A stretch of 64,000 bases of DNA from a virus. Location: IMG/VR virus record IMGVR_UViG_3300013947_000003, positions 32,001 through 96,000 of that record; one strand, given 5' to 3'. The notes under the pieces were generated by a model, which saw nothing but the letters and a program-made list of their open reading frames with translations, searched no databases and was not told the origin of the DNA. The translations under genes were made by a program, and so were the position numbers. This document shows, piece after piece, positions 691 to 21,212 of the stretch (positions are counted from its first letter, which is position 1; the number at the start of each line of letters is the position of its first letter).

Positions 691-1827
691 TTAAACATCT
701 AAAGTCCAACCTTTTCCTATAAAGGATTCAGGATCTTTACTGCCTCCCATAAAATTAAGGTTTCCATCAGAAGATCTTTGAGTATTATTAAGAACATTTT
801 CCAGTTCGCTAATACCCCTTTTTACTTCTTTTTTAACCTTACCTTTTATAAAACCACTTAAATCTTTAAACCCATTTGTTAATGTAAAAATAAGTCCCAG
901 ATTTTTAATAAAGTCTACTTTATTCTCCATTTCATACTGTTGAATTGCAGTATAAAGTTCTCCAGTGCTTTTATCTTTATGCACAGGCTTCATTATATTA
1001 TCCAGAATCCTTTGTCTTGTATTTCTATCTACTTCTAAATCACCAAAAAATTTTTTATCTTCAAGTATAGATTTTTTAAGAGTTTCTATTTGTTCGGCCT
1101 ATTCTCTTTTGCTCTTCTCGGCTTCTTCTTCTGCATCTTTTACAACTTTATTATATGCAGTTTTATAAAAATCTATATTTCCTTGAAGAGCTTCTTTTGC
1201 ATCTTCTATATCTGTTCCGCCCTTTATAGATTTATCTACCTCTCTTTGAGCTTTATCCTAAGAATATCCTCTATTAATAAAATCCTAGTATATTAATTTC
1301 TTTCTTAAATCTTCACCTTGATCACTTTCTTCTTCTATAGCAGATTGCTAAATACTGTCTAAATAATTTAAAGCTCCTTCATATTGTTTAATAAGATCTG
1401 GTTCTACACCAACACCTAAAGCTTTATTTATTCTTTTATATTTATCATCTAATTCTGAAGAAATCTTACTTTCAATAAGTGTTCTAAAATCTTCCGGTGT
1501 TTCTATTTTAGAAATGTCTTCTTCATTAAGGTCAGGGAAAATACCATCATCTGCAAAAGCTTTAGCAATGGAAGAATAAAATTTAGGAGAAGTGCCCTTT
1601 TCAGATGTGGTACTTTCCTGTTCCTTAATTGTATCTTCTTCACTACTTACGCTCTCTGGTGAATCCTCAAATAAATTATCTGGATTAACCTCAGTAGTAT
1701 TTTCTTCTTTTTTCTCTTCTTCAGGGGCTCCTTCTACAGTTTCTGTAGTATCCTCCTGTACATCTTCATTAAACAGGTTTTCTATTTCTGAACCTGTATA
1801 AATATTATCAAATGATAAACCTTCCAT
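691..1827 (-). CDS. late protein, acidic N-terminus and coiled-coil-like C-half, function unknown (TAG read as sense)
   Basis: Track fragments 691-993 and 1348-1827 share one frame, joined through 4 in-frame TAG (1348, 1285, 1258, 1099). There is no TAA/TGA until TAA at 691. Confidence 0.6.
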
Positions 1828-1929
1828 TTATTCTCCTTTTATCTAGTTTATTCAATACAAAATTACTATATTTTAGATTATATTACGCTGTAATTAATAA
1901 AACCTTAATAGTAATATTAACAAAAATAT

Positions 1930-1953
1930 AAGGTGGGGGAAATTCCCCACCTT
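1930..1953 (-). terminator. rho-independent terminator hairpin
   Basis: aaggtgggg-gaaatt-ccccacctt, a 9-bp GC-rich stem. On the minus strand it is followed by atattttt, 6 nt after the TAA at 1959. Confidence 0.7.
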
Positions 1954-1958
1954 ATACC

Positions 1959-2360
1959 TTAAAGTTCAACTATAGATTCTAGAGCATCTTCAAACATCTA
2001 TTGTGCTAAATTACCACTAAGATGTGCAGCTTCTTCTGAATAAGGATTAATATCCAAAGCTTCACATAAATGCATTTCTAAATGATTCTTTTCATGTACC
2101 AAAGTGTTTAAAAACTCTGCAATGCTACTAGCTTTATGTATAACAATAATGGTCATGTGATTATCAAAGCTGGAAAAAGTTAATCCTGTATCTAATTCTG
2201 CTTTATCTAAATTTGTTTTTACGGAGTCTATAGTACTCTAATTCTTGCTCATCTAAGAGACCTTTTTAATAATTTCGTTTCTCTACTAAAAATCCAAAAC
2301 ATAATAGATATTTACATCCCAGTTATATTTAGTCACTTTGAATTTTTGGCATAGTCCCAT
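1959..2360 (-). CDS. small HExxH (zincin-like) protein, TAG read as sense
   Basis: ATG 2360-2358 overlaps the upstream stop (TAATG). There are 5 in-frame TAG. Motif TLVHEKNHLEMH. Ends at TAA 1959. Confidence 0.5.
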
Positions 2361-2566
2361 TATTTATATTTCTCTTTAAGTTTCTCTAATTTTTCCTCAA
2401 AGCCTTCTCTATAGCTTCTTCCGCTTCTTTCTCCGTAACCTTCTAGTTCTCTCATGGCTTTTCTATAACCATGTTCACAGCCTTCTTTAAATGCTTTTTC
2501 CAGCATTTCTTCACTGTCACGAGATCTTTCATTATAATCTTCTGTTATATGATAAATTCTTCCCAT
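2360..2566 (-). CDS. hypothetical Arg/Glu-rich protein
   Basis: Intact 68-aa ORF in the track, with a TAA 1 codon upstream of its ATG. Confidence 0.55.
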   Translation of the reverse strand: MGRIYHITEDYNERSRDSEEMLEKAFKEGCEHGYRKAMRELEGYGERSGRSYREGFEEKLEKLKEKYK

Positions 2567-2717
2567 AGTTTAATCAGTTTTAGTTTCTTTTTTAAGAGTG
2601 GCCATTACTTCTTTTATGCTTCCCATTAATTCAGACATTTGTTGTTTTAACGCATTAATCTCTTGCTTCTATTTTTTCTATTCAGCAAACTCAGGATTTA
2701 AAGTCTATAATAAACTT

Positions 2718-3077
2718 TCACAATCCTATACTATTTTTTTTATGGTAGTCTACACTATTTAATATACCCAAACTTTTCTATCTTAATGAGTCCACTTCTG
2801 CATTCATAGCTTCTCTAGAAGTTGTTATTACCAATGCACCATTTACTGTACCCTAATCTGCAACATCTAGATTAGCCGGTAATTTCTATAAAGTAATATT
2901 ATTATCATTTATTTTAACCACAACATCTACAACCATTTCCTACGGATTTATAAAATTAGTTACTGGAAATTTTGGTTGTGGCTGTGATATGCTTACAACT
3001 TGTCCTACTTCTATATAAGGAGACGCCTCTTTATGAAGTATATATATTTGACTATTAGCTCTTAAATTTTGAAACAT
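2718..3077 (-). CDS. hypothetical late protein (zero-frame part; possible frameshift extension to 2570)
   Basis: ATG 3077, 4 in-frame TAG, TGA at 2718 just after an A8 run (T8 at 2734-2741 on plus). The +1 frame stays open to TAA 2570. Confidence 0.55.
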
Positions 3078-3089
3078 ATTAATATTTTA

Positions 3090-3512
3090 TTATGCCGTAG
3101 CCGACGTTATTACTAAAGTTAAAGAATCATTAATTGTGTAAGATAATGCACATCCACAATTAATATTAGAACCGTATTGTTCTCTTCCAACATTTGTTAG
3201 AGTTATTGTGGTAGGAACAGTAGTCTACCCCTAAAATGCAACTACATAATTCTCTGTAAATAGTTGTGTATGAGCATTACATCCGCATTTACCATCTTGT
3301 GTAACAACTGTTATTACTACTTTCACAGGAATAAAAACTGTTGTTTCTACCAACCTTGGAGTTCCAGTAGTGTAAACTACTGAAACCTACGGTTGAATAG
3401 TGGAATCAATACAAAATGGCCTACATAACTTCTCTTTATAAGTCGCCATAAAAGACAACTGATTAGCAACAGGGGCTGTTGCTAATCCTACAGGTGATAT
3501 TGTTACTGCCAT
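3090..3512 (-). CDS. hypothetical late (structural?) protein
   Basis: ATG 3512 to TAA 3090, checked codon by codon: 3 in-frame TAG (3387, 3231, 3225) and no TAA/TGA. Thr/Val-rich sequence. Confidence 0.6.
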
Positions 3513-3524
3513 AATGATTAATTA

Positions 3525-4430
3525 TTAACAATTACAACTACCTGTAGTATAAGGATATCCATAATTATTGCAGCCACATCCATAAGGGTTTGGAACTACA
3601 TAAGCAGGAGAGGGAGAAGGTCTAACCTAACTTACTATATTAGCAGTCTATGCCTACTGAGAAGCTGCCAAAGCAAGTTGACTATTTTCCTATCTAAGAG
3701 CATCAATCTTATTCTGCATCTCTCTCATTTCTAACTAACAGAACTTATCATTAATAAGAGTAGTTTGCGCGGCTATAGCATTCTTTAAATCACAAGTCTA
3801 CTATGCAGTAGCATATGCTGTAGAAGAAAATCCTCTCTCAACAGAACTATTTACAAAATTTATAGCATTCTATAAAGTGTTAGTTTGATTTACATTAGAT
3901 AACTGATTCTCATAATTAGTTTTAGTTATAGAATCCTAAATACTGCAGCAACATTGTGCTAATTGACTGCCTAACTGACAATTTCCGCTCTAGATAGAAT
4001 TGATAATCTGTTGGCCTGTCATACCAACCTGACTACCCACAGTTTGTATAGAGGATTGTACTTGACCTATAGCAGTTTGAAGAGTATTTACATCACAATT
4101 TAAAGTAGTGGCAAGTTGACTTAAAGCCTAACCATTACCATTAATAGCCTGTAAAAGAACTTCTCTACCAAAATCATTATTCAATTGGTTAGGTATACCA
4201 TCAGCATTTCCACCAAACATACCATTACCTCTACCTCCCCAAAGCCAGAACATTATGATTACCCAAATCCACCACATGCCTCCACCTCCCCAAGCATCTT
4301 GGTTTTTAGAAGCATTTGTAAGCATTGCCATAAGATTAGGATCAATACCTTTATTCTGCATTAGACTAGCAATAAGAGCAGAGGAATCAAAGCCCTTATC
4401 TGCTGTATCAAAAACATAAGTTTTTTCCAT
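3525..4430 (-). CDS. membrane-anchored Gln/Asn-rich coiled-coil protein with Cys-rich C-terminus
   Basis: Track ORF 4128-4430 continues through 11 in-frame TAG to TAA 3525 (906 nt). It has a TM-like GGGGMWWIWVIIMFWLWGG segment and the tail ...YGCGCNNYGYPYTTGSCNC. Confidence 0.6.
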
Positions 4431-4517
4431 ATATAAATAATAAAGAAGTTAATAAATAAGTGATCACTGCACAAAGGTATTATTTATATGTCAAAATTAA
4501 CAACAATGCTAAACAAC

Positions 4518-4552
4518 AAAGGCAATACTCTGTATTATAGAATATTGCCTTT
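4518..4552 (-). terminator. hairpin downstream of amidase gene
   Basis: aaaggcaata ... tattgccttt, a 10-bp stem 11 nt after TAA 4563. The T-tract is weak. Confidence 0.45.
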
Positions 4553-4562
4553 AGTATTGTTT

Positions 4563-4973
4563 TTATAAATCCTTATACTCAGTTTTTGCATCAAAAGAAG
4601 GGCACGCTTTATTGGCATATTCTCTATGCCCGTGTATAGTAGCGTTAGGATATTTCTTTCTAAGATCTTTTATAAGTTTTATTAAAGAAGCTTTTTGAGC
4701 AGCTGTTCGAGTGTCTTTAGGTGTTTTACCGTCTTTCGCTACGCCTCCTATATAACATACTCCTATAGAATATGCATTATGACCTGAGCAATGGGCTCCT
4801 ATTCTTTCTATTGGTCTACCTGTATGTATAGAGCCATCTCTATAAACAACATAATGGTAACCAATATCACTAAATCCTCTTTGTTTATGCCACTACCTTA
4901 TTTGATTTACTGTATAATCCTTTCCTTCAGGAGTAGCAGAACAGTGTATTATAATTTCATTTATTATTCTCAT
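4563..4973 (-). CDS. N-acetylmuramoyl-L-alanine amidase (T7-lysozyme/PGRP type endolysin)
   Basis: Own translation: MRIINEIIIHCSATPEGKDYTVNQIR(TAG)WHKQRGFSDIGYHYVVYRDGSIHTGRP...HREYANKACPSFD. It carries the family motifs HCSAT, GYH and KACPSFD. There is one in-frame TAG at 4893-4895. Confidence 0.9.
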
Positions 4974-5259
4974 ATTTATTTATATATAAATCTAAATCCT
5001 TTTTATACCAAAATAATTCTTTAAAGCCCGCTTGTTTCATTCCTTTAGGCAATCTTCCTTGTCTAACATAATTATCAAAAGAAGCCCTACTGATATTTAA
5101 ATATTGGTAAGCCTAATATTTACTCAGTCTTTCTTGTTTATCAGAAAGAACTCTTAAAGATTTTAGTATTTGTTCTTCTTCCTCTTTTGTTAAATCACAA
5201 CTTCCTTTATCTATATTTTCTATAAAACCTTTTAATAAATGTCGGATTATTTTTAACAT
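4957..5259 (-). CDS. small HTH (excisionase/MerR-like) DNA-binding protein
   Basis: ...LSKY(TAG)AYQYLNISRASFDNYVRQGRLPKGMKQAGFKELFWYKKDLD. The only ATG is at 5259. It overlaps both neighbours and ends at TGA 4957. Confidence 0.4.
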
Positions 5260-5620
5260 AACTATATAATAAATAAAATAACATAATTCCTGTAATTATA
5301 ATATGAAAAACAAATAGATGAAAATCCGAAATATTAATTCCTATATGATAATCAATTAAGTTTAAAGTTTCTATAACAAATATATACCATAAAAATATTT
5401 TATGATATGTACAAAATCTAAAAACAATTGCAGATACATATATAAATACCCAGGGTAAAAAAGACATTCCACCAAGACAACTTAACAGCCATGTATCTAT
5501 ATCAAAATAAGCAAATAAAGTGTTGAAGAAATAACATAAAGCTCCTAATATTGGAATTAGCTTTAGTAATTTCAACAACACTTTATATAAAATCTTATTT
5601 AAGTTTTCCTCCTTTAGCAT
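5207..5620 (-). CDS. multi-pass membrane protein (holin candidate by position)
   Basis: Track ORF with about 4 hydrophobic helices, adjacent to the amidase and lipoprotein genes. Confidence 0.5.
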   Translation of the reverse strand: MLKEENLNKILYKVLLKLLKLIPILGALCYFFNTLFAYFDIDTWLLSCLGGMSFLPWVFIYVSAIVFRFCTYHKIFLWYIFVIETLNLIDYHIGINISDFHLFVFHIIITGIMLFYLLYSYVKNNPTFIKRFYRKYR

Positions 5621-5658
5621 ACTATCCTTTCTTTAGTCCTGCTTTCGGAGTTAGAGGC

Positions 5659-6051
5659 TTAGGCCTTCTTGTCTTTGTTTTTGTTTTTGCCATTTTCATC
5701 TTTTTTAGGCTAGCTCATAATTCTAAGCTAGCAGGTTAAATCAGTACATATTTGAGTAGTTAACTATATTACCGCAGTTTTAAGATCTTCAAGTTCTCTC
5801 TTTAAATTATCATTATCCTATCTTAAAGTGACAATTTCAATACGAAGTTCCTTGTTTTCCTATAGTGCAGTATCCAATCTTTCTTTATTGTCGTTACTTA
5901 ACTTTTCATAAAACTCTAAAGATGCTTCCATATTACTTATTACTGAATTATCTACTTCACTATTATATTTCTTTCTTGCTAAAAACCATGATAACCAGCT
6001 TCCTGCTGTAGTAGAAACTACTCCAATTACTGCTATAATAATTTCAGTCAT
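5659..6051 (-). CDS. N-terminal TM plus coiled-coil protein (spanin-like)
   Basis: Track ORF 5860-6051 continues through 5 in-frame TAG to TAA 5659. It has a TM helix and then the heptad region ENKELRIEIVTLR.DNDNLKRELEDLK. Confidence 0.5.
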
Positions 6052-6055
6052 CGGA

Positions 6056-6442
6056 TTAAGATTTTTTTAGTTTATACCATGTTATTGCGGCACCTCCTAT
6101 TATAAATGCAGCACCTAACCACATTAATAACTTTTGATACCATTTAATTTTATTAACTTCTTTCACTTCAGTTTTTGTTATATATATCGGCGTTTCAATA
6201 GAGTCTTTCTGTATCATAGTATCAGTATGATTTAGATATTTATAAATGTACTTATACTTATATAAGTACAAGGTATCACCATTTACAAATCTGTCAATAC
6301 TATCATGAACATATATACTGTCTATTTTTAATGTATTTATATATTCTGTTTTTACTTTTTCTATAGGAACTTCTTTTTCTATTATTTTAGTAGACCCACA
6401 AGCAACTAGAAAAACAAGAATAATTATTAATAAATATCTCAT
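6056..6442 (-). CDS. lipoprotein with C-terminal hydrophobic helix (outer spanin-like?)
   Basis: MRYLLIIILVFLVACGS lipobox. Track ORF. Confidence 0.6.
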   Translation of the reverse strand: MRYLLIIILVFLVACGSTKIIEKEVPIEKVKTEYINTLKIDSIYVHDSIDRFVNGDTLYLYKYKYIYKYLNHTDTMIQKDSIETPIYITKTEVKEVNKIKWYQKLLMWLGAAFIIGGAAITWYKLKKS

Positions 6443-6465
6443 AGTTTGTTTTTTGTATACATTAT

Positions 6466-8004
6466 CTAATGTAACGTTCCATTATATACATTAGGTTCCA
6501 CAATAATTATATTGTCTTTATGGGTTACCATACTTCCGTTGCCTCCAAGGGGACTGCTAGACTTTCCTGTAGGAATTCCTTTAGATATGTTTTTAAATGT
6601 CATTTTAGATGCTTTAGTATTAAACATTGCAGTATTTAAGTTTTCACACTCAAAATCTATTGTACCTAAATAAACAGATCCGTCTTCATTTCCATTTTCA
6701 AAACATCTATTATAATAACAACACACCAGCTTTATACTTTGTTCATCAGACAAATAATTTTTAACATAAGTTATTCTAGGTAATGCTCCCTATAAATGTC
6801 CCCCTGCAGTATTTATTTTAATAGGAACTAAAGGTTGATCTGCATTACCATTAATACCGTCAGTAATAGTACTGCATAAAGGATCTATAATATTTCCTCC
6901 AAATCCTAACCAAAACAATTTATTATACTAGTTTCCGACATTACCCACTGCACGTATTACATAAAATATATGTCCAGATTCTGTGATTGTAAAATCAGGT
7001 TCAGAAACTAAAGTAGTATTACCATGTAATATAGAGGGCGTAATTGTAGCATCCCATTCTACTCCTGAAAAATCAGCTAGTTTCATTCCATCAAAAGTCT
7101 CAAAATCTTCAGTATGAACCAAATATATAGATCTCCAACAACCATCTGCAGAAAAATTTAATCTGTTTCTTGCGTAAGCCATAAAGTAATACAGCTTATT
7201 AAATTTGATTACTTTATTAGTGGGTATAACATGCATGTTATTGATAACAAGGTCTAAATCTTTAGATGTCCAAGTTTTACCACCATCTATAGATTTATAT
7301 AATGTTGTTATTTGGTCGCTTGTAAACTTTAGAGATATTATAACTTCGTTAAGCTCTTTATCTGTAAAATTAACACAGACGCAGTCTCCAAACATACTTG
7401 CAGCAGCATTGGGAACCTCATTATCATATATAAGTTCTTCAGTAGTATTTTCGTATATTTTATAAACTCGGTCTCTATAATTAGTTATAGAGTATAAAGT
7501 AGCTTTTTCCTGTCTTTCAAGTCTATACAAATACTGTTTATCATAGTATTGGTCTTCTCCTACTATATATTCCCAAGAAGGACTCCAAGGAGTTGTCTAT
7601 TTAGTAGCATCAACTTTATTAAAATACTTTATATCTTCTTCAATCTTTTCATTAATACTATCAATATCTTCTGCTTGTTTTTCAACTTTAGAAGTAAGAG
7701 CCTTAATAGCAGTGTTTAGAGTATTTAATTTATTATCAGTATTTGTTTTCCAAACATTTAATTCCTATATGGCTGCTTTATTGTCTGAAATGTCTTTTTC
7801 AATAGTTTGAAAATGAAAAATAGTATCTTGAAGGATATTATCCTTAATTGTGCTAAGATTAACTCTTACATTTTTAGCATTCTACACTATTACTATAGAG
7901 TCCTCATCTTTAATAGAACTTTTTAAATCAAACTCTAAATCTTTAACTCCTTTAGAATTTAACCATTTTTCTATTTTCTCTAATTCTAATCTTCCTAAAA
8001 ACAT
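6466..8004 (-). CDS. tail fibre/spike protein with BNR (Asp-box) propeller-like C-domain
   Basis: ATG 8004 to TAA 6466, checked codon by codon: 5 in-frame TAG (7882, 7765, 7597, 6928, 6790). N-terminal coiled coil. Asp-box SIDGGKTWT. Confidence 0.65.
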
Positions 8005-8717
8005 TATTCTACAGCTATTAATTGTATTTTTATTTTTCGACTACCATTATTAATAATACTACTAGTATCAGTCATTTTGGGAATGGTTACTTGCAAATAT
8101 GCTTTAGTTCCAGCAGTTGCAACTCCTTCTGAGTTTTTCCAACTTGAAGTAATAACATCGCTTTTATATACGCGTTCTCTGTCCTAAGTAAGTACATCCC
8201 CCACTTCATGTTTACACCATATTACTATAGGTTCTAAAAAATAGTCTTGTATTCCTATATAAGGAGCACTATTCCAATAAATACTATACCCATTAAATTC
8301 TTTTATATCAGACTAGTAATCATACAAACCATTATTCAACATAGGTACCGCCACAGTTTTAGAACTTCCTACTTTTAGGTCTTTAAAAAAGTTTCTAATA
8401 CCAAGAGTAAATACAGGCATTGTTAGTTGATCATATTTAGAAGCATAACTAGCACAATCTCTTTTTGATATATAATTCGCATTAATACCTTTTACCTCAG
8501 TTTCTAAAGATGATACACTATACACAAAGTCATCCATATTTCCTACAGGGGACCAGCTACCGTCTATATAATGGTAGATTATATCATTATCAGAATGTAA
8601 CTCATAAGATTCTTCATCCTAATCGCTTTTTATTTTCTGTTTACCTGCTTTTATCCAAAGTACATTTGTTTGTTTGGGAGGATTGGCAGAATATATAATA
8701 TTTTCGTACTTTATCAT
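8004..8717 (-). CDS. tail-fibre-like protein (shared N-terminal module)
   Basis: ATG 8717 to TAA 8004 (TAATG overlap with the next gene), 3 in-frame TAG. The N-terminus MIKYENIIYSANPPKQTNVLWIKAGK parallels that of 8720-9502. Confidence 0.6.
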
Positions 8718-8719
8718 AA

Positions 8720-9502
8720 TTAATCTATTAAGGTTACTATTACTTTATTCAAACTTGCATTTGCTTCAATTTCAGTCACACTATAAAACTCTACCTTAAT
8801 CCTTTTTTGTATATGTTCTACACTACTACCAACATCAATAGTAGTTTCTGTAATATATGTAGGTCTTAATTCCTAACTATAATTAGTTTTAAAAGCAAAG
8901 TTTGTAGAAGTAAAATCTAACTTACAAGGAACTCCTGTTTGTGTATTACCACTTAAAGTATTTGTTATGATTATATATGGAACATGATAATAATAAATTG
9001 CTTTTCCCACAGCTTCCCATTTATTATTGCTGGTAATAGTGGGTGTTATAGCAATATCACGTGTGATGCTAACTGTATCCATAGAAAGTTCATGAAGGTT
9101 ATCAATCTAAATTACAGGTATAGCCAAAGAAGACTCAGTGCCTTTATAAGTAGTAAAGTTGTCACTAAGCACATTAACACTGTTATTAAGGGTAGTAACG
9201 GTATTATTTACAGTAGTAACAGTATTATTTACAGAAGTAATAGACTCTTTAATATTGTCCGTCTCACTTTGAAGAGTTACAATATCTTCTTTTATACCTG
9301 ATATATAGTCAGCCGTATCATCCGCATTATTTACAGACCTCCAATTTCCGTCTACAAATTGATACAGTTTACTCCCAGGATATTCACTTTTATCCTCTTC
9401 AGGATTTTGTAAAGATTCAACGTATTTACCTGCTTTTATCCACAAAACATTATGTTCTTCAGGAGCTTTTTTTGAATATACTATATCTTTATATTTTATC
9501 AT
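8720..9502 (-). CDS. tail-fibre-like protein (shared N-terminal module)
   Basis: Track ORFs 9107-9502 and 8873-9082 are joined by TAG (9107, 8873). Ends at TAA 8720. N-terminus MIKYKDIVYSKKAPEEHNVLWIKAGK. Contains TVNNTVTT repeats. Confidence 0.6.
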
Positions 9503-11904
9503 TTACTATTAGTATTAGTAGGTTTATTTATTTGCTTTAATTTAAGAGCCTCATCGGCTTTATTTTTACGTTTAGTTTCAGCTAATTTATCTTTTTCTAA
9601 TTCCTATTTAGAATTAAACTATCTAATTTTTTCGTCAAGTTCAGCTTTTGCTTGTTCCGGATCTTCTTTATAGAAATTCTAATTAGCCATAGATTCAGCA
9701 TTTATTTCTGCAACAAGTATTCTGGTTTCATTGTCTCTTTGATTTATGGAATCTTTAAGTTCCATTTCTGCCTATTTTTGCTGCGCTTCCTGCTGTATTT
9801 GTTGCTGTGCCAATTCTTGTTGCTGTTGCTATTGTTGCTATGCTCTCTATAACATGTCTTCTTCATTCTTTTGGACCATTCTTTGTTTCTCGGCTAATGA
9901 AGTACTATTGTATAATTTCATAATAGTAGAGAAGTTAAGTGTTTGATTCTATAGGGCTGCCTATGCTAGCATATCTAACTTTTGTTTAAGCTCCTGCATA
10001 CCATCACTATTATCAACAACTAAACCATAGTCAGCTTCAGCAAACTCATCACCATCAATTTCAGTAACTTTCATAGTATTATCTGCTAATAAATACTAGA
10101 ACTTCTTACTTCTTCCTTTAAGTGCAATTTTTGCAGTTTCTAAAAAGCATTCTAAAGCTCTTCTTTTAACATCGTCATGGACCATAAACAGCCATTCAGT
10201 AATATGAGAAGACTGTAAAGTAGCCCTTTCCACACCACCAACAGTTTCTCTATTACTAATCTAGCCTTCTCTTTGTCTAGAAATGCCTGCAACATCAGAC
10301 ATTTCCTACTTAATATACTCCAATAGATTTACATATTGCTATATGGTATTACCAACATCTGCGTTAAATGCTCCCTGTTGTGCATTATTTAAAGCCCCTG
10401 AAAGCTTTCCCATAGCTGCTCCTGAATTGCCTTCTTTAAAACTATCAGAAACAACAATACCGGAAGTTTTAGCAAAATACATCCACTTTTCTATATCCCA
10501 TCCAGTAGGAACTTTGGCTAAATCTAGATTAATTAGAACACCCCAATTTCTAGCAAGTAGTTTATTAAGTCTGTCGTGTATAACATCATATAAGTAATTA
10601 TATGATTTCATCTTATCAACTAAAGAAAATGGTTTTGAATCATTAAGATTATAAACAGATCCTACAATACCAAAATGGCATCTTGAAGGATTGGAGAGTC
10701 TATTATACTAAACTACCCTAGGACGCATATTTACATAAATATCTGTGCCTATTTTAGTTCCTTCCCAAGCTTCATTTATATAAAAAACTGTTTCTTCCTC
10801 ACCCTCTTCTGTTTTTGTTATATAAGTTTCCGGATAAAAATTAAATACTTCTTCACCTGTTTCTGGATCATAAGATTTAACTTTTTTTATTTTTCTTCTA
10901 GATTTCCAATAAACTCTAAGAACCCTTATATTACCATTCATATCAAAAGGAAGAAGCGAATCATTAACTCCATCAAGTTCTCCTGTAATATTAGAAAAAA
11001 AATCAGTTTGGGAATTAAATGTTTCACCTAACATAGAACCATTTATAAATCCATATCTTTCATCTATATTATCCATAGAATCAGTAGATCCTTGCCCCAA
11101 ATTGTCAGGCATTTCTTCTATATACTCTCTGTCCTTTTCTGACAATACATCATAATAAGTATCTATTATCTTCCCGGGGCTCCAATAATCCTCAAGTATT
11201 ATAATATCTGCATCTTCTAATCTATTAGAATATCCAGATCTAAATGCGCGTATTTTTAAAGGGTTTATTCTTTCAATGACGGGTTCTCCACCAACAATAT
11301 CACATTGATATATTTCTTCACCAACAGTCATTCCGTCCATAAATCCTTGGTTAAATATCAAAGGCATGTTAAGTTCCTTAACATAGTGGTGTAATAATGA
11401 ATTGGCCCTTATTTCTCTCATATCTTGCCATTCTAGAGAAAAATAATCTCCCATCTATTGAATGCGTTGATTAAACTCTTCCTCAGAAGAGGAAGTATCC
11501 TAAACAGCTTTTTGAAGTTCCTAATATATTTGATCCCTTTTATTGTTTTCTATTTCAGATATAGAATTAGGATTTGTAATAACAACTCTATAATCAAATA
11601 CTCTGGCAGATTCTTCGCCTCTCAGAACATCTAGTTTGCTATTCATGATAGGATAGTGTTGTATTTTATCAGGAATAAATCCAGCCTGAAGATGCTCGGG
11701 ATTTAATATCATCATAAGGTCACTCATATGAAGTTTACCATTAATTAAATCATAATTAATCTTCTTATGAATAACACTGTTCCTAACAGGTGAATAGTTG
11801 AAAAATGTCTTAGAGTCTGCCCAATCACAATGAAGTTTACGCCATTTTTTATTCTTTTTATTAAATGGCAACTATTGTGGGGGTAATTTAACAAAATTAC
11901 TCAT
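9499..11904 (-). CDS. portal protein
   Basis: ATG 11904 to TGA 9499 (2406 nt). Three track fragments and the gaps between them join through 18 in-frame TAG; 9499-10710 was checked codon by codon. Support: about 800 aa, adjacent to the terminase, and a podovirus-connector-like core. The C-terminal tail is poly-Gln. Confidence 0.7.
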
Positions 11905-11983
11905 ATATCTTTCAACTTTAAATTTTATACAAAGGTATCATATAATAAACAAATACACAACATAATAATTATTTTATTAACTA

Positions 11984-14221
11984 TTATAAAGTATTAAGTT
12001 TAAACTGTCTATAATTTTTTTCAAAGAATGGGTCTATCTCAAGTCCTTTAGGTTTTACCTAAGCTCTTCGCATATCCCCTTGATATAATATCATCTTTTC
12101 TTCTCTAAAGAGCATTAACTAAACTAATGACATCAATCTATCAACATTTATATCAGGGTTAAATAATATAAGTTCTTTTAGTAAAGCTCTATTTTTAATA
12201 AATGATAAATTAGGCACAGTATAAGAAACTTCATGACCATTCTATTCTTCATTTATAGTAACAGGCTTTAATAACCAATCTCTAATTAAAGTTAGTCCAA
12301 AGTTTTTAATAGGTACTGTTGCCTAAACTCCCTTACTAGAATTACCAAAATTAGAGGACTTTATCAACTATTTATTCCTTAAATATTCAGGTGTATCAGC
12401 CAACATGTACAAACTATTAGTTCTACTAAAGTAAGAAAATGTGTTCTTTTTATTACTTTCATAGAGTAATTGACAATTATAAAATAAACATATCTTTCTA
12501 GCTATCTCATTTAAATCATCTACAAACATAGGTCTGCCTGTGTACTCTGCAACTATTCTATCAGTCCATAGGTCCATTACAAACAAAGAACCTAAAGACA
12601 TTGTATTAGATTCATCATTTTCATAATTATCTAGAGATGCTATATACCTATCCTATGGAATCTTACCTTGTACTTCCTAAGGCATTTCAAATATTTCTAA
12701 AGCTCCGGTACTTTTATTATCCTTTAATGGGAAGTCTCTAATAGGTTTATCATAACTAGGCTAGAACTCTACTTCATGTTTTTTATTAAATACAAGATTT
12801 CCTATATAAGTATCATCGTAGAAATTAGGGTTATTATCAATTTCATTTAATCTAGCTGTTAATTCTGTTATAGGAAATATATTGCCTTTAGCTCTCTGAA
12901 TAGCTTCCTACGGTGTTATAGGAATTTCAGCAATACGTTTAGTAATAGCATTAATATTAGTTGAATTATATTTAACAAGATACCTATCTTTTAGTATTTG
13001 TACTAATGCCTTAATAACATCGCTATTACCATCTTTATCATAACAATCAGCCCTATTTAAATATCCAGGAAAAAAGTATGTAAACTATTTCCTTCCCTAT
13101 CCCTCTTTATCATAAATATTATCAATCCCTAAAACATTGTAGCCTTTAGGATTATACATAAGTTCCTGCATAGAACTAAAGTCAGAGTCATTATCACCTG
13201 CTGTACCCCAAGCAGCAATAATTCCCCACACACTATCACCATCTTCTACAGAAGGCCTTAATACCTACCATAGATTTAATAACCTAGGGAACGTGCCACT
13301 CTCCTCGATTATATATAAAACTCCTCTAGAACCTCTAAGTTTAGATTCATCATCTTTAGAAGTAATACCCATAACACTATTTTCTGTACCCATTCTAACA
13401 CCTGTTTCAACATCTAAATAGCCCATAGTCCATTGCATATTCTAAAGACTAGATGTTAATCTTCTAGAGGGAAATTGAGTATTACTAGCACAGAAATCTA
13501 TATAATACTAAAACATGTCTAGAATCTAATTAGCCCCTTGTATATATTTTCTTTCAGATGCAGTTACGACACACTATACTTTCTTATTTACTTCGTAACC
13601 TTCTCCTAATATAAATCTTTTAGCTAACAAAGAAGCACCACAAAAAGACTTACCACAACCACGTCTTGATAGTTCCATATAATGATGTCCTCGATCTCTA
13701 CACTATTGTAAAAAATGAAATTTATAATAGTGCCCTTCCCAAAATAATGGCATACCTACAGAACGTATTGTTTTACCTTTTGCATCTTTTTTTATAAGCT
13801 ACATAGGGCAGTAGTTTAAAAAGAAATACATATCACCGGTAATCCACTCACCATCAGATGGCCTTACATACCCTTCATAGCATCTTCTAATTTCCTCTCT
13901 AATCCATTTACCAAATTCACTATTAGGATTAGCATTAGGTTTTAAATCTGTTAGTCTTCCTGTTTTCTAAAAATGTATTGCTGTGGGTCTAAAATAATCC
14001 GTATCTTCTAATATGTGGGGTTTTGTTATGTCAATAATGATTTTACCTTCTTCATCTCTAGGAAGATCTTTAGCATAGGGTCTATCAGCAGAAATTAGCT
14101 TTTTTATATAAGGAACATTATTAATATAATCAAAGAACTGCTCCTTAACTTCTTCATTCATAGAATCAAGCAGTTCCTAAGTTATACTAGTCTAGCATTT
14201 ATTTAATCGAAAGTTCTCCAT
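11984..14221 (-). CDS. terL: terminase large subunit
   Basis: Checked codon by codon from 14161 to 11984: 19 in-frame TAG and zero TAA/TGA over 726 codons. Walker A LSRRGCGKS and a WGTAGD-type nuclease half. An upstream ATG at 14221 adds 20 codons (2 more TAG). Confidence 0.85.
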
Positions 14222-14489
14222 TTAATACCAGTTTTATTATTTCTTGTATTATATATAAATCAAACTTTTTCTAAAAACTCTCTAAGGAAGTGGTTGATAC
14301 TTTATCTGTTTTAGTAAACCTTTCTATAAGCTCTCCTTTACTTTTAGTTATTTCATACAACTCCCCTGTGAAAGTCTTAATAATCTTCATTGTAGAATGT
14401 GTCTCCATAGTTTTTCTAACAACAAGATTTTTACCAACTGCTTTCCCTATAGTATTTATTACTTCATTAAAGGTTAAGTCCATCTTCAA
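14199..14489 (-). CDS. small protein upstream of terL (small terminase by position only)
   Basis: Track ORF 14271-14489 continues past TAG 14271 to TAA 14199. Confidence 0.4.
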
Positions 14490-15015
14490 ATAACTTTTTT
14501 TCGCCCGAACCTCTCATTTTTCCTGAACTAACCATTTCAGTGGTAATGGCTTTTTCTGCATCTGCAAGGTCCTTAACTAATTGTGGAATCATTTTAATAG
14601 TAGAGGTTATACTATTTATAGTATAAATAGGCTTTCCTTTATCATCTGAGGCATTAAGATCAACATCTCTAAGGAATGTTCTAACCTTATCTACTGCAAT
14701 ACGAGTATCCTCAAGAAGAAGCGCAGAGGGGGATTTAAAGGACTCATAAAACTACATAGCTTCTTGAACTTGTTTATCAGGTTTCCAATCCTTTAATCCC
14801 TCTCCCTCTATAACTGCTTTTGCCCTTTCTTTTGGGTCAATAATATATTGATAATCACTTCTAGGATCGCACATAAAATAAATATAAGCCAATTCCTAAA
14901 GTGCTTTATTTTTACCATTAGTTTTATCTCTAGACCATATTAATTTGAATGGCTTAAGCATTAGTGCTTCTTCCGAGATAACAACTTTATATGCATCATA
15001 TTTAAACAACTTCAT
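14467..15015 (-). CDS. hypothetical late protein
   Basis: ATG 15015 to TAA 14467 (549 nt), 2 in-frame TAG. Own translation: MKLFKYDAYKVVISEEALMLKPFKLIW... Confidence 0.5.
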
Positions 15016-15030
15016 AAATAATAAATTAAA

Positions 15031-15054
15031 AAAGCCTCTCAACTGAGAGGCTTT
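15031..15054 (-). terminator. rho-independent terminator
   Basis: aaagcctctc-aact-gagaggcttt, followed on the minus strand by a T-rich run. It lies 6 nt after TAA 15060. Confidence 0.7.
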
Positions 15055-15059
15055 GTCCT

Positions 15060-15470
15060 TTAAAGAATAATGTCTTTATTAGGATGGATAATTGAAGTAT
15101 CTTCAGTTTCCTCCCATTCTTCTACTACAAATTCTATATCTCTGTCCTACAGTAGTAAACAGGGCTTATTATCAATTACAACAATATCAAATCTATATTC
15201 AATAACCGGATTGTCTGATATAATACCGTCTTTAAGACTGCCGTCTTTATGCTTTTTGATTGCAAATCTGTTTGGGTTTATTGAGACAAGATCTCCTACT
15301 TTAATGCCTCTAACAGAATCTCCAACAGCTAATACTTTTTGATACTCTTTTACAGTACCTGCTTTTTTTGTAACATCTATAATATTTCCTATTTTACCAT
15401 CTTCCTCATATACATCCATAGTTGTAACAAGGGCAGTAAACATAGGTTTAATTTTTTTTACTATCAACAT
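15060..15470 (-). CDS. GroES/gp31-like co-chaperonin candidate
   Basis: Track ORF 15147-15470 continues past TAG 15147 to TAA 15060. The pattern IKP..ALV...Q.VLAVGD.V.GIKVGDLV resembles Cpn10. Confidence 0.45.
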
Positions 15471-15690
15471 ATGCTTTTATTCTTTTATATTTATCATAAG
15501 GGCAAGCTAACTTACCTAATGATGGAATATTAAAACTAGTAGTTAATTTAGAAAACTCTTCCTCTGATAAGTTTTCTTTTAAAGGTAACTCTTCTATGTG
15601 TTTTCTAATACATAGCCAAAAGGCTTTATAGGTTTTCTCCACCACATTTACTGGTAAATTTAACTCTTTTGCTATCTCTTCTATAGTCAT
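15448..15690 (-). CDS. hypothetical (HTH-like) protein
   Basis: Track ORF with overlapping gene junctions. Confidence 0.5.
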   Translation of the reverse strand: MTIEEIAKELNLPVNVVEKTYKAFWLCIRKHIEELPLKENLSEEEFSKLTTSFNIPSLGKLACPYDKYKRIKAYVDSKKN

Positions 15691-16070
15691 TCTGTAAAAT
15701 CAAATAACAGCATAAACTTAAAATTACCCTCGTCTTTTGTAATATTAGGTATGAATTTAGGATTTATTTTATCATCTATAATGATCTTCTTATCCCTAAG
15801 TTTAGACATTATAACCTGAAAATGAGAACTTGTAATACCACAATCTTCTCTTACAGCCTTTTTAATCTCCTCACTCATTAATACCCTATTAAGTAATTCC
15901 TCACTTGTAATATTGAGGCTTAATTGATACCTGTGTTTTACAAATGAGGAAATTACTTCAATCTCTCTATTTGTGAGATTATGAAAGGGCTTAAGAAACT
16001 CAAACCAATATTTAAAGAACTTTTCTTTTGTAGTGGGAATCCTAACAACATTGTTAATCTTCCCTAACAT
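15687..16070 (-). CDS. hypothetical protein
   Basis: Track ORF with an ATGA-type junction to its neighbour. Confidence 0.5.
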   Translation of the reverse strand: MLGKINNVVRIPTTKEKFFKYWFEFLKPFHNLTNREIEVISSFVKHRYQLSLNITSEELLNRVLMSEEIKKAVREDCGITSSHFQVIMSKLRDKKIIIDDKINPKFIPNITKDEGNFKFMLLFDFTE

Positions 16071-16071
16071 A

Positions 16072-16329
16072 TTATTCTTCTGCTTGAGTTTCTTCTTTTA
16101 CAGGAGTCATAATCTCAACAATCTCCTTAACACACTTATCTACAAATTCCTTATCAAAGCTAATTTCATTTTCAATTACCTTAAAAAGATAATCAAGACG
16201 CTTAAAAAGAGTAGTAGTGCTAAATTGTTGAAGTTTATTATATAATGCATTATTATCCTGCTGAAGCTGTTCTGCAACTGCTTTAAGTTGTTCGTACGTA
16301 AGCTCCTTTACTTCTTTATTATCTTCCAT
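16072..16329 (-). CDS. hypothetical coiled-coil protein
   Basis: Track ORF. Confidence 0.5.
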   Translation of the reverse strand: MEDNKEVKELTYEQLKAVAEQLQQDNNALYNKLQQFSTTTLFKRLDYLFKVIENEISFDKEFVDKCVKEIVEIMTPVKEETQAEE

Positions 16330-16332
16330 TGC

Positions 16333-16563
16333 TTATAAAGTATTATTTAAATATTTAAATCCGTATTTATTTTTATAAAGAGTTTCCCACTCTTTAATAT
16401 TTAATTCTCCTGTATCTGTTCCTCCACAGTTATCACAGTATACAAGATCGTCTAAGCCCATTCTGAGTATCCTTAAAGACAAGCATTTCTTACAGTATAC
16501 AACAGGTTCCTCATCATACTTTGTAGGCTCCTTGAATTCTAAAGTATCAATTGGTTCCTCCAT
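16333..16563 (-). CDS. zinc-ribbon protein
   Basis: CKKC...CDNC four-Cys pattern. Track ORF. Confidence 0.5.
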   Translation of the reverse strand: MEEPIDTLEFKEPTKYDEEPVVYCKKCLSLRILRMGLDDLVYCDNCGGTDTGELNIKEWETLYKNKYGFKYLNNTL

Positions 16564-16723
16564 CTTTATAGTATACTAATATAAAACTACCATTTTCTTT
16601 GACTAAAGATACTATGTCTTCTCTTTTAACATTTAGGTTATTTGCTTTTACTACCAACTATCGAATATTAGTTGCAGATATGGCAGTCATAACCTTTCCA
16701 TCTTTAACCATAGGTTCCATCAT
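16547..16723 (-). CDS. hypothetical small protein
   Basis: Own translation MMEPMVKDGKVMTAISATNIR(TAG)LVVKANNL... ATGA overlap upstream. Ends at TGA 16547. Confidence 0.4.
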
Positions 16724-16902
16724 TTCTTTATTTTACCGCCTGAAGCCATCTTCATAGCATTGGCTCTTCTTTCTAATGCTGCTGCTTGTGCTTTAGCGGC
16801 CTTAATAGCAGCATTCTTTCTACTAGGACTATTCATAATTTCCTAGTATTGTGCTAATGTATGAGCATCACTTTCAGCTTGCCATTTTTTATCAATTTTC
16901 AT
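16720..16902 (-). CDS. hypothetical small protein
   Basis: MKIDKKWQAESDAHTLAQY(TAG)EIMNSPSRKNAAIKAAKAQAAALERR... ATGA overlaps at both ends. Confidence 0.4.
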
Positions 16903-17081
16903 CTTTTTACACTTATTTTATTAAGTTCATCATAGAAATTTAGTACAAACTACTCATTTTCTAGTGAGTGTATTTCTATAATTTTATCTATAAAGTTAAG
17001 ATCGTCTAGTATAGCCAGCATGGCATGTTTAAGATATTCAATACTGGGCTTATTAAAATTATCAAGAATAGTCTGTTCCAT
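16899..17081 (-). CDS. hypothetical small protein
   Basis: MEQTILDNFNKPSIEYLKHAML...ENE(TAG)FVLNFYDELNKISVKR. Ends at TGA 16899. Confidence 0.4.
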
Positions 17082-17095
17082 AATATTAAATTTAG

Positions 17096-17168
17096 TCGCC
17101 CCACTCAGAGTCGAACTGAGATCTTCAGATTTAGAGTCTGTAGTAATAAACCGTTATACTATAGGGCA
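17096..17168 (-). tRNA. suppressor tRNA, anticodon CTA (reads TAG); probably Gln-accepting
   Basis: Hand-folded 73-nt cloverleaf. Acceptor TGCCCTA/TGGGGCG (2 G-U pairs). Anticodon stem CAGA/TCTG with loop C-T-CTA-A-A. T arm CTCAG-TTCGACT-CTGAG. U1 and a weak 1:72 pair, as in bacterial tRNA-Gln. Confidence 0.85.
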
Positions 17169-17172
17169 TTAA

Positions 17173-17406
17173 TTAAAATATATATTTATACATTAGTATA
17201 TAAAAAGCAACTGCTAAGAACTGCCCTACTATGCCCCCTGCTAATGTCATTAAAATATCCAGTTCGTCAAATTTATTTCCATATTGCTTGTCTTTAAATT
17301 CCATTCCTATGGCCAAGCCTAATACAAATAATATTGTGCCAATAAATCCTGCAGGTATTGCATAAAAGAAATGTTTGTTCCTGTTACTTTCCGTAAACCA
17401 ACTCAT
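17173..17406 (-). CDS. small membrane protein
   Basis: Track ORF with 2-3 hydrophobic helices, lying between tRNA genes. Confidence 0.45.
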   Translation of the reverse strand: MSWFTESNRNKHFFYAIPAGFIGTILFVLGLAIGMEFKDKQYGNKFDELDILMTLAGGIVGQFLAVAFYILMYKYIF

Positions 17407-17421
17407 AATATTTATTTTTTG

Positions 17422-17486
17422 CGGTTCCTAGTAGATTCGAACTACTATCTTCCATTTCAGGAGTAATACCATTATACTAAGGAACC
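17422..17486 (-). tRNA. tRNA-like element with truncated anticodon arm (pseudo-tRNA?)
   Basis: Acceptor GGTTCCT/AGGAACC, a D arm near-identical to the suppressor's, and T arm AGTAG-TTCGAAT-CTACT. Only about 12 nt (tcc-tgaaat-gga) occupy the position of the 17-nt anticodon arm. Confidence 0.35.
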
Positions 17487-17566
17487 AAGCTCCCTCCTTC
17501 CGTCTTCTCAGATTAAGGGAGGTTATTGTACAAATTAACAACAATTAAACATCTTTCCACCGTGTG

Positions 17567-17638
17567 TCTCCCCAGAAAGACTCGAACTTTCAATGTGGGA
17601 TTAGAAATCCCAAGTTATATCCCTTTAACTATGGGGAG
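17567..17638 (-). tRNA. tRNA-Arg (anticodon TCT)
   Basis: Perfect cloverleaf. Acceptor CTCCCCA/TGGGGAG, D stem GTTA/TAAC, anticodon stem TGGGA/TCCCA with loop TT-TCT-AA, T arm GAAAG-TTCGAGT-CTTTC. Confidence 0.85.
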
Positions 17639-17704
17639 CTTAATCAGAGTATTAAGATGCCACAAAGTAAAGTATAATATTTTAATTATACAAATATTTT
17701 AACA

Positions 17705-17890
17705 TTATTTAAGATTATTATTTATTTCATTGCTTAATTGTTTCATTTGTTCTTGGGTATTATCTATTCCGCCCCCATCAGCAAATTTATTATAAGTTTC
17801 TTTAATACTATTTACATCCCTAAGACCACTCTGAACACCAAGACGTATTATAATAGCCCTATCTCTCATTGGTAAGTTTTCCCAAGCCAT
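17705..17890 (-). CDS. hypothetical small protein
   Basis: Track ORF. Confidence 0.4.
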   Translation of the reverse strand: MAWENLPMRDRAIIIRLGVQSGLRDVNSIKETYNKFADGGGIDNTQEQMKQLSNEINNNLK

Positions 17891-17941
17891 ATATATATTA
17901 AAATTAAAGGGTATAGGGTTAAAGCCCCATACCCTTATATA

Positions 17942-18514
17942 TTATTGAATATTTACAAAATCTATCATTAAAAATTCTTTATCAGTGCCTTCCTCTATAT
18001 TCTTTTTATTATTAAACTTAGCATATATCCAAGGCCACCAATCATCTAAATAAGTCCCTGTACATGGAGTACCTAGAGTATTGTTAGATGAATACTTATC
18101 CTCATAAGTAGGATTATGTTTAAATTCATAAACTACTGTCCAAGACTCTTTGTCAATACCTCCACAGAACTTTACTCTAGGATACTTTTTTACTAAAGTA
18201 TCACAGTAATGCTGAAAGAGTTGTATATCCTCTTCATCTAATTTCCTTTCTAGAACTAGTCTAACATAACAATTTCTTTTCTTATTAAGGAAGTCTAAGA
18301 ATGTTTCTATATCTCCTTTATAAGCCATAAGACCATGCCTTATTTCTACATTAAAATCCCTATCAAAACTAATCCTAAAATCAAAAAATCTAATACCTAG
18401 CTTATACTGCTCCTCTATAGATTTACTTTGACACCTTGCTACAAATCTAAAAGGATATAGATACCATTTCTTAGGAGGTAAATATGTTAGAGAATTGTGT
18501 GATGCTATGATCAT
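17942..18514 (-). CDS. PI-PLC X-domain-like phosphodiesterase
   Basis: N-terminal IIASHNSLTY and GIRFFDFRI resemble the PLC-like phosphodiesterase TIM-barrel signature. Track ORF. Confidence 0.5.
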   Translation of the reverse strand: MIIASHNSLTYLPPKKWYLYPFRFVARCQSKSIEEQYKLGIRFFDFRISFDRDFNVEIRHGLMAYKGDIETFLDFLNKKRNCYVRLVLERKLDEEDIQLFQHYCDTLVKKYPRVKFCGGIDKESWTVVYEFKHNPTYEDKYSSNNTLGTPCTGTYLDDWWPWIYAKFNNKKNIEEGTDKEFLMIDFVNIQ

Positions 18515-19275
18515 CTTATAATAATATTTTTTGTAGAAAATCCTTCTTTTATTTGTACTTTAGGAAGTATTGTAACTGTATAATCATACCCGATGCCATT
18601 ACATATAGCATTTGGATTGGTTTCTGTAATATAGAATGTTTCTCTTCCTGTAGTATAATTTGCTAGATCCTAGCATTCTGTACTTATACTATAACCTCCA
18701 GAACTTTCTGTAAACTGATCAGATGTGGTTAAAGTTGCTACAGTACTTAGTACACCTATATTAAAATCTGGGGAATATGAGTTATAATATAAAAATGAAT
18801 ATTTATTACTAAATAATTCAGTCCTACTTAATATTAAATTTGGAGAAGTGTCTTTTTGGTAGTCTAGAAGATTTTTATAAGAATCATTATGATCTGGTAC
18901 CCCTATATAAACATTTGCTGTAAGTTTTACTCCTTCAGGGAAATCATTTCTTAATACCTGTATACCCCGATATATTCTAAAATTATCACCTTCTACATTG
19001 CCTGCCAGCATCCCCGAATAATTGTCAGCAAAGGGAAGATTTGAAGTGTCAGTACTTGGAATAACAGTTTTAAAGTAATCACCTATTACAACAGTATATA
19101 TATCATCTTTATCTATATAATAAACAGGATCAGTAATAGCAAAATTGGCTTTTGGGCTATCATCTCCAATACTATCAAGAACTTCCCAATACTTCAAATT
19201 ATTCTTCTGCTCTTCAAGACTACCACCACCAGAGACAATAGTCTTACCATTTCTTTTACCTATAATATGTTTCAT
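18511..19275 (-). CDS. first late-strand gene, function unknown
   Basis: Track ORF 18670-19275 continues past TAG 18670 to TGA 18511 (ATGA overlap with the next gene). Confidence 0.55.
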
Positions 19276-20891: not shown

Positions 20892-21212
20892 CAATATCCC
20901 CAGGATGAGCTCAAGAGCGATTGAATAAAAGGCCCTACAAAGCCTTTTACTTCACTCTTGAGTTCACCAAAGGTGGGTGGCCTGTTGGGTTTGTAGGCAC
21001 CCCAACATTAGACAAAAACCTACAGCACACTGCTCCCTCAGTAATATTCTATGCCCTCCATTAATTGGTTGTAGCCCTCAGTTTGCATATTGTATTATAT
21101 ATATGTAAACTTCTCTTTAGTTATGCATAGTTTCAGGTCATTCTTATCCATAGAATGGCTTGTTACTAATGCTGTATGTCTCGTTGATTTATTAACTCTT
21201 AACCTCAAAGAT

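Follow-up and report, generated by a model that had tools for sequence, protein, structure and literature searches.

The window analysed here, a stretch of 64,000 nucleotides (positions 32,001 to 96,000 of IMG/VR virus record IMGVR_UViG_3300013947_000003), represents roughly two thirds of a crAss-like gut phage genome (Crassvirales, Steigviridae, beta crAss-like), as judged from its sequence. It very probably belongs to a two-code phage in which the replication genes are neutral to the genetic code, the late and polymerase genes use TAG for glutamine, and a phage tRNA with anticodon CUA, hereafter tRNA(CUA), would effect a late translational switch. The two-code layout and the phage-borne CUA tRNA are visible directly in the sequence. 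The original prediction, of a minus-strand late module at 691-19275 that is readable only if TAG is a sense codon, is supported in its core interpretation. Its extent was too narrow, recoding being present also on the plus strand at 54713-63374, and it overlooked the suppressor tRNA, this second recoded block and the code-neutral replication block.

Distribution of in-frame TAG

On the minus strand, 691-19278 is a contiguous run of open reading frames (ORFs) closed by TAA or TGA only, with short gaps or overlaps of 1-4 nt between them. Coding coverage of 691-19275, calculated as a greedy ORF cover, rises from 54.5% under code 11 to 96.1% with TAG as sense, which was the comparison of codes 15 and 11 proposed at the outset. 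As a control TGA was also read as sense; coverage of the same region then reached only 59.6%, and recoding of TGA was rejected. The in-frame TAG codons had been put at about 90 in about 20 genes, and 91 credible TAG were counted in 19 minus-strand genes, leaving out three upstream of the likely start of the gene at 16333-16632 and one inside a tRNA-like element. The recoded late block proper (691-17081, minus strand), with 25 ORFs including packaging, fibre-like, lysis and small genes, contains 93 raw in-frame TAG, or 90 after three upstream of a likely true start are dropped, at a density of 17.7 per 1000 codons. The stop of every recoded gene is TAA or TGA, and ATGA or TAATG overlaps with the next start are found as had been described, e.g. 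at 9499-9502, 8004, 6439-6442, 2360, 15687-15690 and 18511-18514. The longest frame free of TAA and TGA measures 812 codons, against a maximum of 249 among 200 shuffles of the region, and the probability of 745 codons without TAA or TGA is ~1e-21.

Profile matches, likewise proposed at the outset as a check, run end to end through the TAG positions of TerL and portal. TerL (11984-14221, minus strand) is 745 aa long, contains 21 in-frame TAG and stops at TAA; its residues 95-716 match phrog_6681 in a single stretch (1e-98), crossing every TAG within. The earlier count for this gene, 19 TAG over 726 codons, holds for a start at Met21. Of the two forms the longer, with 745 aa and 21 TAG, is the likelier, because homologues conserve the region upstream of Met21, aligning from residue ~10, with Q there in 108 of 108. 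TAG makes up 21 of the 33 Gln-type codons of TerL (64%). The portal gene (9499-11904, minus strand) encodes 801 aa with 18 in-frame TAG and stops at TGA; its stop-to-stop frame, 9499-11937, is 812 codons with the same 18 TAG. Residues 6-799 of the portal match phrog_6547 in a single stretch (4e-134), again crossing every TAG within. Three families of unknown function were also recovered in the profile search of the recoded block. Some TerL proteins of relatives (P0011, P0035, P0066, P0085, P0103 and P0118) reach ~1,090 aa and carry Hom_end/Hint or LAGLIDADG Pfam domains, which are inserted inteins; TerL of the window is without an intein.

Further minus-strand genes carry in-frame TAG at various loads. 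The ORF at 6439-8046 has seven stop-to-stop and six from its first ATG at 8004, that at 3525-4448 has 11, and that at 3090-3521 has three. Four ORFs upstream of the suppressor tRNA (17173-19275, minus strand) are nearly TAG-free, with one credible TAG in 604 codons.

The second recoded block, on the plus strand at 54713-63374, shows a similar shift in coverage, from 53.2% under code 11 to 96.5% with TAG as sense. It consists of a giant gene in two exons. Exon 1 (54713-59503, plus strand) has 30 in-frame TAG, ends ...GFDF and aligns to residues 5-1351 of WEY17546.1, annotated 'putative RNA polymerase', of Kolpuevirus Bc03. Exon 2 (60390-63374, plus strand) starts DIDKLY... and has 17 in-frame TAG. 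The predicted spliced product of 2591 aa contains 47 TAG and no TAA or TGA. It is 34-35% identical in amino acids to the Bc03 homologue over ~1,900 residues and has the DFDID motif (DxDxD). No PHROG match and no PDB sequence match was obtained for this gene, and its designation as a putative RNA polymerase is based on homology to the annotated Bc03 gene and on the DFDID motif.

The 886-nt insert at 59504-60389 (plus strand), which splits the DFDID motif, fits a group I intron in its core, junction, boundaries and endonuclease ORF, as far as these can be judged from sequence. The core is recognised by Rfam Intron_gpI with 36.6 bits (E=1.8e-7) at 59533-59620 and the 3' part with E=0.056; this falls short of the Rfam gathering score (50), since the model is split by the ORF. 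The exon junction GFDF|DIDKLY is seamless, the 5' exon ends in T and the intron ends in G (...TTT|...GG|). The ORF within the intron (59652-60299, plus strand) encodes a LAGLIDADG homing endonuclease (phrog_11023, 2e-22). The next plus-strand ORF, 63365-64000, runs off the window with one in-frame TAG in 212 codons.

The replication and nucleotide-metabolism block (28431-54387, plus strand) encodes helicases, a DnaB-like helicase, a primase, an exonuclease, NrdD, dUTPase, ThyX and PolA, a family A DNA polymerase (phrog_17, 1e-79). Its 7895 codons include four TAG, each at an extreme of an ORF, and coverage is near-equal in both codes (90.9% vs 91.4%). Under code 11, TAG is the stop of three genes of this block. 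The exonuclease gene (39904-40950) ends in TAG-TAA-TG, the ochre back-up at 40951-40953 overlapping the next start (40948-40955); late read-through of this TAG would add one residue only. TAG accounts for a share of 0.39 of the Gln-type codons (TAG, CAA and CAG) of the late block and 0.44 of those of the polymerase gene, but for 0.02 of those of the replication block (Fisher p=2.6e-27). The three blocks have equal base composition and off-frame TAG at equal frequency. The TAG contrast between blocks is not compositional.

This contrast bears on whether the code changes during infection at all. Under an unconditional code 15, TAG would mean Gln throughout infection, the suppressor being active from the start or the host tolerant, and the absence of TAG from replication genes would reflect ancestry or codon bias without a regulatory role. 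The sequence carries no measure of timing, the replication genes read identically in both codes, and the tRNA cluster that includes the suppressor lies only ~2 kb from the divergent intergenic region, so that the cluster could be transcribed early, all of which would suit such a code. It is nevertheless an unlikely account, given TAG shares of 0.39-0.44 vs 0.02 at equal composition and equal off-frame TAG, and given that a few replication-block genes do end in TAG, one of them with an immediate TAA back-up. The bimodal layout also recurs in independent clades of recoded phages (10.1101/2021.08.26.457843).

An annotation of the window under code 11 would be badly wrong, as had been foreseen. 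TerL, the portal, the fibre-like and lysis genes and the polymerase of 2,591 aa would be shattered into over 100 pieces, and half of what is coding would be missed; code-aware gene callers already cope.

Glutamine at TAG and the suppressor tRNA

Among 108 TerL homologues (<85% identity), Q occupies 1550 of the 2268 cells at the 21 TAG columns of the window. Public protein sets contain full-length 745-aa TerL proteins that are 88-97% identical to that of the window, and one TerL variant is present on at least 24 contigs, its stored product being full length with Q at the TAG positions of the window. Since database TerL proteins may themselves be code-15 translations, a comparison was made at the DNA level with two standard-code references, cr116_1 (Pamirivirus faecium, MT774389) and Kolpuevirus Bc03 (OQ198718), in both of which TerL, portal and the giant polymerase gene are free of in-frame TAG. 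At the TerL TAG positions cr116_1 has CAA or CAG in 14 of 21 cases. At the portal TAG positions CAA or CAG is found at 11 of 18 in cr116_1 and 12 of 18 in Bc03, so that cr116_1 has a Gln codon at 25 of the 39 positions of TerL and portal together.

With TerL, portal and polymerase pooled over the two references, Gln is present at 47 of 125 TAG columns vs a background of 3.7%. This codon-to-amino-acid inference against standard-code orthologues, of a kind also proposed at the outset, gives Gln as the sole enriched residue (10.2-fold, p=1.6e-34), with Asn at 0.6-fold, Lys at 0.8-fold and Trp never. Broken alignments or TAG codons falling in gaps would have spoken against recoding; gaps at TAG columns amount to 8.0% vs a background of 7.5%, with no frame change. 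Within the lineage, two metagenomic sister contigs, L012 and L010, share ~86% aa identity with the window over the late genes. Window TAG codons align there (L012 and L010, respectively) with TAG in 32 and 44 cases, CAA in 22 and 22, CAG in 6 and 14, and a handful of other codons, and the reverse comparison, of the relatives' TAG with window codons, gives the same picture. Because TAG interchanges with CAA and CAG among close relatives, it acts as a synonymous Gln codon within the lineage. As judged from these alignments, TAG is glutamine in the recoded genes of the window.

The candidate decoder is an amber suppressor tRNA with anticodon CUA at 17095-17168 (minus strand), detected by ARAGORN and by Rfam (tRNA, 52.4 bits). 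It heads the recoded block, directly upstream of the TAG-rich genes and on the same strand, and is conserved in place in L012 and a further relative, L137. It has U1.G72 and discriminator A73, and CCA is not encoded. A73 matches phage tRNA-Gln, tRNA-Asn having G73, and together with the weak U1.G72 pair it would favour Gln charging. The nearest match to the suppressor among GenBank phages is the tRNA(CUA) of Lak megaphages (75-77% identity). Viral contigs that share its acceptor stem include 39 tRNA-Asn, 16 CUA and eight Gln tRNAs, to which the window tRNA is 61%, 72% and 65% identical, respectively. A bacterial genome scan with the suppressor T arm and 3' acceptor gave five unrelated sites: Arg(CCU), Phe, Trp, one CUA tRNA and one non-tRNA site.

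The suppressor is part of a small tRNA cluster. Its first member is tRNA-Arg(UCU) at 17566-17638 (minus strand; ARAGORN and Rfam). Between this and the suppressor lies a tRNA-like remnant at 17422-17486 (minus strand; Rfam tRNA, 45.6 bits), whose acceptor, D and T arms are intact and whose anticodon arm is down to ~3 bp with a 6-nt loop, 13 model positions being reduced to 6 nt. The D arm is identical to that of phage tRNA-Thr(UGU), and the element is conserved in L010, L012 and L137, with variable loop sequence; it is probably a decayed tRNA-Thr. At the equivalent place cr116_1 (L139, 1096-3749) has 13 ordinary tRNAs, including tRNA-Gln(UUG), tRNA-Thr and tRNA-Arg, and no CUA tRNA. The tRNA array was therefore reduced in the recoded lineage, since only tRNA-Arg, the tRNA-Thr remnant and the suppressor remain vs 13 in cr116_1. 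Elsewhere in the window, at 27364-27431 (plus strand), a non-canonical tRNA-like sequence (Rfam, 44.9 bits; missed by ARAGORN) adjoins tRNA-Met(CAU), near tRNA-Leu(UAA), and has an odd anticodon loop (possible anticodon AGU) and an odd T loop (GTCATAT).

It is very improbable that TAG is read as a residue other than Gln, e.g. pyrrolysine, asparagine or tryptophan. ARAGORN labels the suppressor 'Pyl', a label that comes solely from the anticodon, and against the tRNAs of cr116_1 the suppressor is marginally closer to tRNA-Asn, the best at 0.67, than to tRNA-Gln (0.58). Gln alone is enriched at TAG columns, close relatives swap TAG almost solely with CAA and CAG, and the discriminator is not the G73 of tRNA-Asn. 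No PylS-like or pyrrolysine-synthesis (PylBCD) gene was found in Pfam and PHROG searches of the window proteins, and TAG is frequent and aligned with Gln, whereas pyrrolysine UAG is sparse and site-specific. Proteomics of related phages also gave Q (PMC9523058). That TAG goes untranslated altogether, in decaying pseudogenes, through assembly or sequencing artefacts, or with rescue by frameshifting or splicing, has next to no probability and is effectively refuted by the stop pattern: introns do occur in the genome, so genes can be interrupted otherwise, but every one of the 138 interruptions (91 on the minus strand, 47 in the polymerase gene) is a TAG, with no TAA or TGA and no frame change, alignments pass straight through them, and the same recoded layout is repeated in dozens of independently assembled relatives.

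A proposed late translational switch

The proposed mechanism begins with the TAG-free replication genes, which would be translated first by unmodified host ribosomes; their compatibility with the standard code is evident, and the timing is presumed. The tRNA(CUA) would be transcribed, processed and given its CCA by host enzymes, and would then acquire Gln, the enzyme being most likely the glutaminyl-tRNA synthetase (GlnRS) of the host, as E. coli GlnRS and supE/su7 biology suggest. E. coli GlnRS reads U35 together with a weak 1:72 pair, and glutaminylation of amber suppressors occurs readily. Glutaminylation of amber suppressors is also argued for recoded phages (10.1101/2021.08.26.457843). 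Charged tRNA(CUA) would outcompete release factor 1 (RF1) at TAG, such that full-length late proteins would be made only after it has accumulated. The outcome, in line with a published hypothesis, would be a translational gate on late and lysis proteins. A possible second outcome, likewise hypothesised in print, would be read-through damage to host proteins that terminate at TAG.

The TAG loads set a demanding rate. For half of the chains to be full length, per-codon read-through would have to exceed ~97% for TerL with its 21 TAG and ~98.5% for the polymerase with its 47. TAG counts of this size imply that reassignment would be nearly complete late in infection, with RF1 almost fully outcompeted. 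The giant polymerase of phage phi14:2 is reportedly a virion protein that transcribes early genes. The giant polymerases of crAss-like phages in general are thought to be virion proteins with this role (PMC7886860). As a virion protein the polymerase would be made late, which is consistent with the recoding pattern.

Lysis proteins are among those that such a gate would hold back. A putative lysis cassette is located at 4563-6442 (minus strand), in which the roles of genes other than the amidase are suggested by sequence features. The amidase gene (4563-4973; phrog_822, 2e-61) has one TAG vs three CAA/CAG, a protein with four transmembrane segments (5207-5620) has no TAG, a spanin-like protein with a transmembrane segment and coiled coil (5659-6051) has five TAG vs one CAA, and a protein with a lipobox and a C-terminal transmembrane segment (6056-6442) has none; all are on the minus strand. 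Temporal gating is suggested by the bimodal TAG distribution and by the TAG bias of the spanin-like gene (5/6) and of TerL (21/33), and by these only.

Several points weigh against a gated two-code phage. Recoding skips some lysis genes, two of the membrane proteins having no TAG. The labels 'early' and 'late' are inferred from gene function. The tRNA(CUA) is about equally similar to phage tRNA-Asn and tRNA-Gln, and its amino acid cannot be read from its sequence. Searches with PHROGs and Pfam found no RF1, RF2, GlnRS or amidotransferase among the 59 proteins of the 64-kb window, and no release-factor, synthetase or anti-RF1 gene was found there, which leaves the near-complete reassignment unexplained.

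Homing-endonuclease elements occur at two places where they could matter to decoding. The endonuclease ORF of the polymerase intron has no TAG in 215 codons; at the 18 per 1000 of its host gene ~3.9 would be expected (P ~0.02). Being TAG-free, it would be translatable before the switch. In L010 (Logan ERR11565213 contig), the suppressor tRNA gene at 6050-7124 is split at U35|A36 of the anticodon by an insert of ~1 kb, which contains a TAG-free ORF for a 272-aa HNH endonuclease (6100-6918). As with group I introns, T is the last base of the 5' exon and G the last base of the insert; two attempts with Rfam found no intron core in this insert. Should it self-splice, intron excision would govern how much mature suppressor is available and thereby when the whole late programme runs. 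ARAGORN misses the split gene of L010. Suppressor tRNAs have been reported for ~60% of phage genomes with TAG recoding, and a split gene would escape standard finders. Some of the suppressors 'missing' from recoded phages could be such split genes, if these are functional. That homing-endonuclease elements interact with the code switch itself in the lineage of the window is a speculative idea and an improbable one at present.

Lineage, other features and known systems

Contigs of the window's own lineage are ~93.5 kb long and recurrent in public assemblies, such that ~30 kb of the phage genome is outside the 64-kb window. Placement in the Steigviridae is indicated by the best matches of TerL and portal, by the giant RNA polymerase homologue with DFDID and by the family A DNA polymerase. 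The best DNA matches in GenBank belong to Steigviridae/Asinivirinae, with 72-74% identity that is confined to TerL and portal, and the nearest genomes are cr116_1, cr128_1 and Kolpuevirus Bc03, all of standard code. Isolated relatives infect Bacteroides cellulosilyticus and B. thetaiotaomicron, and the host of the present phage is likely a member of the Bacteroidales, judging from these relatives and from family placement. Both Bacteroides species use code 11.

Additional features were observed in the window. Within the late block, a fibre-like gene pair at 8004-9502 (minus strand; 237 and 260 aa) is near-identical over ~27 N-terminal residues (MIKY..VLWIKAGK) and then divergent, as if an attachment module had been duplicated and its distal domains exchanged. 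The intergenic region from which the minus-strand and plus-strand modules diverge has, at 19756-19930 (plus strand), an AT-rich motif (TTTTTTATATTTGTAAGGATGTGG and variants, some with TAnnTTTG) that occurs three to four times in tandem; the copies are possibly repeated promoters. An island of 39-52% G+C with small orphan ORFs is present at 20000-25800 in a genome of 31% G+C. Its segment 20145-22001 is an insertion relative to L012, which has ~410 nt there, and L010 is without a match. The island ORF at 21195-21521 has a weak match to PHROG families of unknown function, and no Rfam family was found in the island (20-25.8 kb). Within the replication block, NrdD is in two pieces on the plus strand, 40953-41855 (ATP-cone and N-terminus) and 43272-44426 (C-terminal part), with an ORF for a 370-aa HNH endonuclease between them (41925-43037, plus strand); the split is probably due to an intron or a homing-endonuclease insertion. 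Adjacent ORFs at 36250-38096 (plus strand) have a weak Prok-JAB match (JAB/MPN-like, E=3.6e-4, below the Pfam cut-off) and a ThiF/E1-like match (2.8e-17), and by these matches resemble a ubiquitin-like modification pair.

The observation of recoding is confirmed, as a further example of a phenomenon published for Steigviridae in 2021-2022. The window reveals no new principle, and its description at the outset as a clear new instance stands, with precedent in the beta group (PMC7886860). Its value is that of a clean and compact specimen of a two-code phage, with bimodal TAG, a single suppressor heading the recoded block and neither a release-factor nor a synthetase gene within its 64 kb, in contrast to close standard-code relatives that retain an ordinary tRNA-Gln in a large tRNA array. 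The lineage is suited to asking how RF1 is outcompeted at 20-47 TAG per gene and how the standard code passes to code 15.

Among known systems are the Lak megaphages of Prevotella, described as TAG-recoded in the papers cited here. They are unrelated and ~540 kb in size, yet their tRNA(CUA) resembles that of the window in the acceptor stem (UGCCCUA/UGGGGC), T stem, A73 and unstable 1:72 pair. Lak recoding spans most replication genes and some Lak phages encode RF2 (10.1101/2021.08.26.457843), which was not found in the window.

The two-code architecture and the model of late and lysis gating were described by Borges et al. (10.1101/2021.08.26.457843), and Peters et al. (PMC9523058) gave proteomic proof of TAG as Q in a 94 kb crAss-like phage, a size close to the ~93.5 kb of the lineage of the window. 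By published description these phages likewise combine a replication block in the standard code with structural and lysis genes that are recoded and with a tRNA(CUA), and some of their genes are strongly TAG-biased, as are the spanin-like and TerL genes here. They differ in that the amidase gene of the window is not preferentially recoded.

Standard-code cr116_1 and Bc03 resemble the window in the order of genes around TerL and portal, in having the giant polymerase gene and in the tRNA cluster that lies upstream of their late genes; they differ in their lack of in-frame TAG in TerL, portal and polymerase, and these genomes and cr128_1 stand apart in code and at 72-74% DNA identity. The closest parallel is provided by the Steigviridae studied by Yutin et al. 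(2021; PMC7886860), who reported TAG-to-Gln recoding in the beta group, mostly in late genes and with suppressor tRNAs, among 243 recoded genomes, and who also found in-frame stops in the transcription block and LAGLIDADG introns. The window belongs to the same family and agrees with these phages in TAG as Gln, in recoded late and giant transcription-block genes, in phage suppressor tRNAs, in PolA within the replication block, and in introns or inteins with LAGLIDADG or HNH endonucleases in conserved genes.

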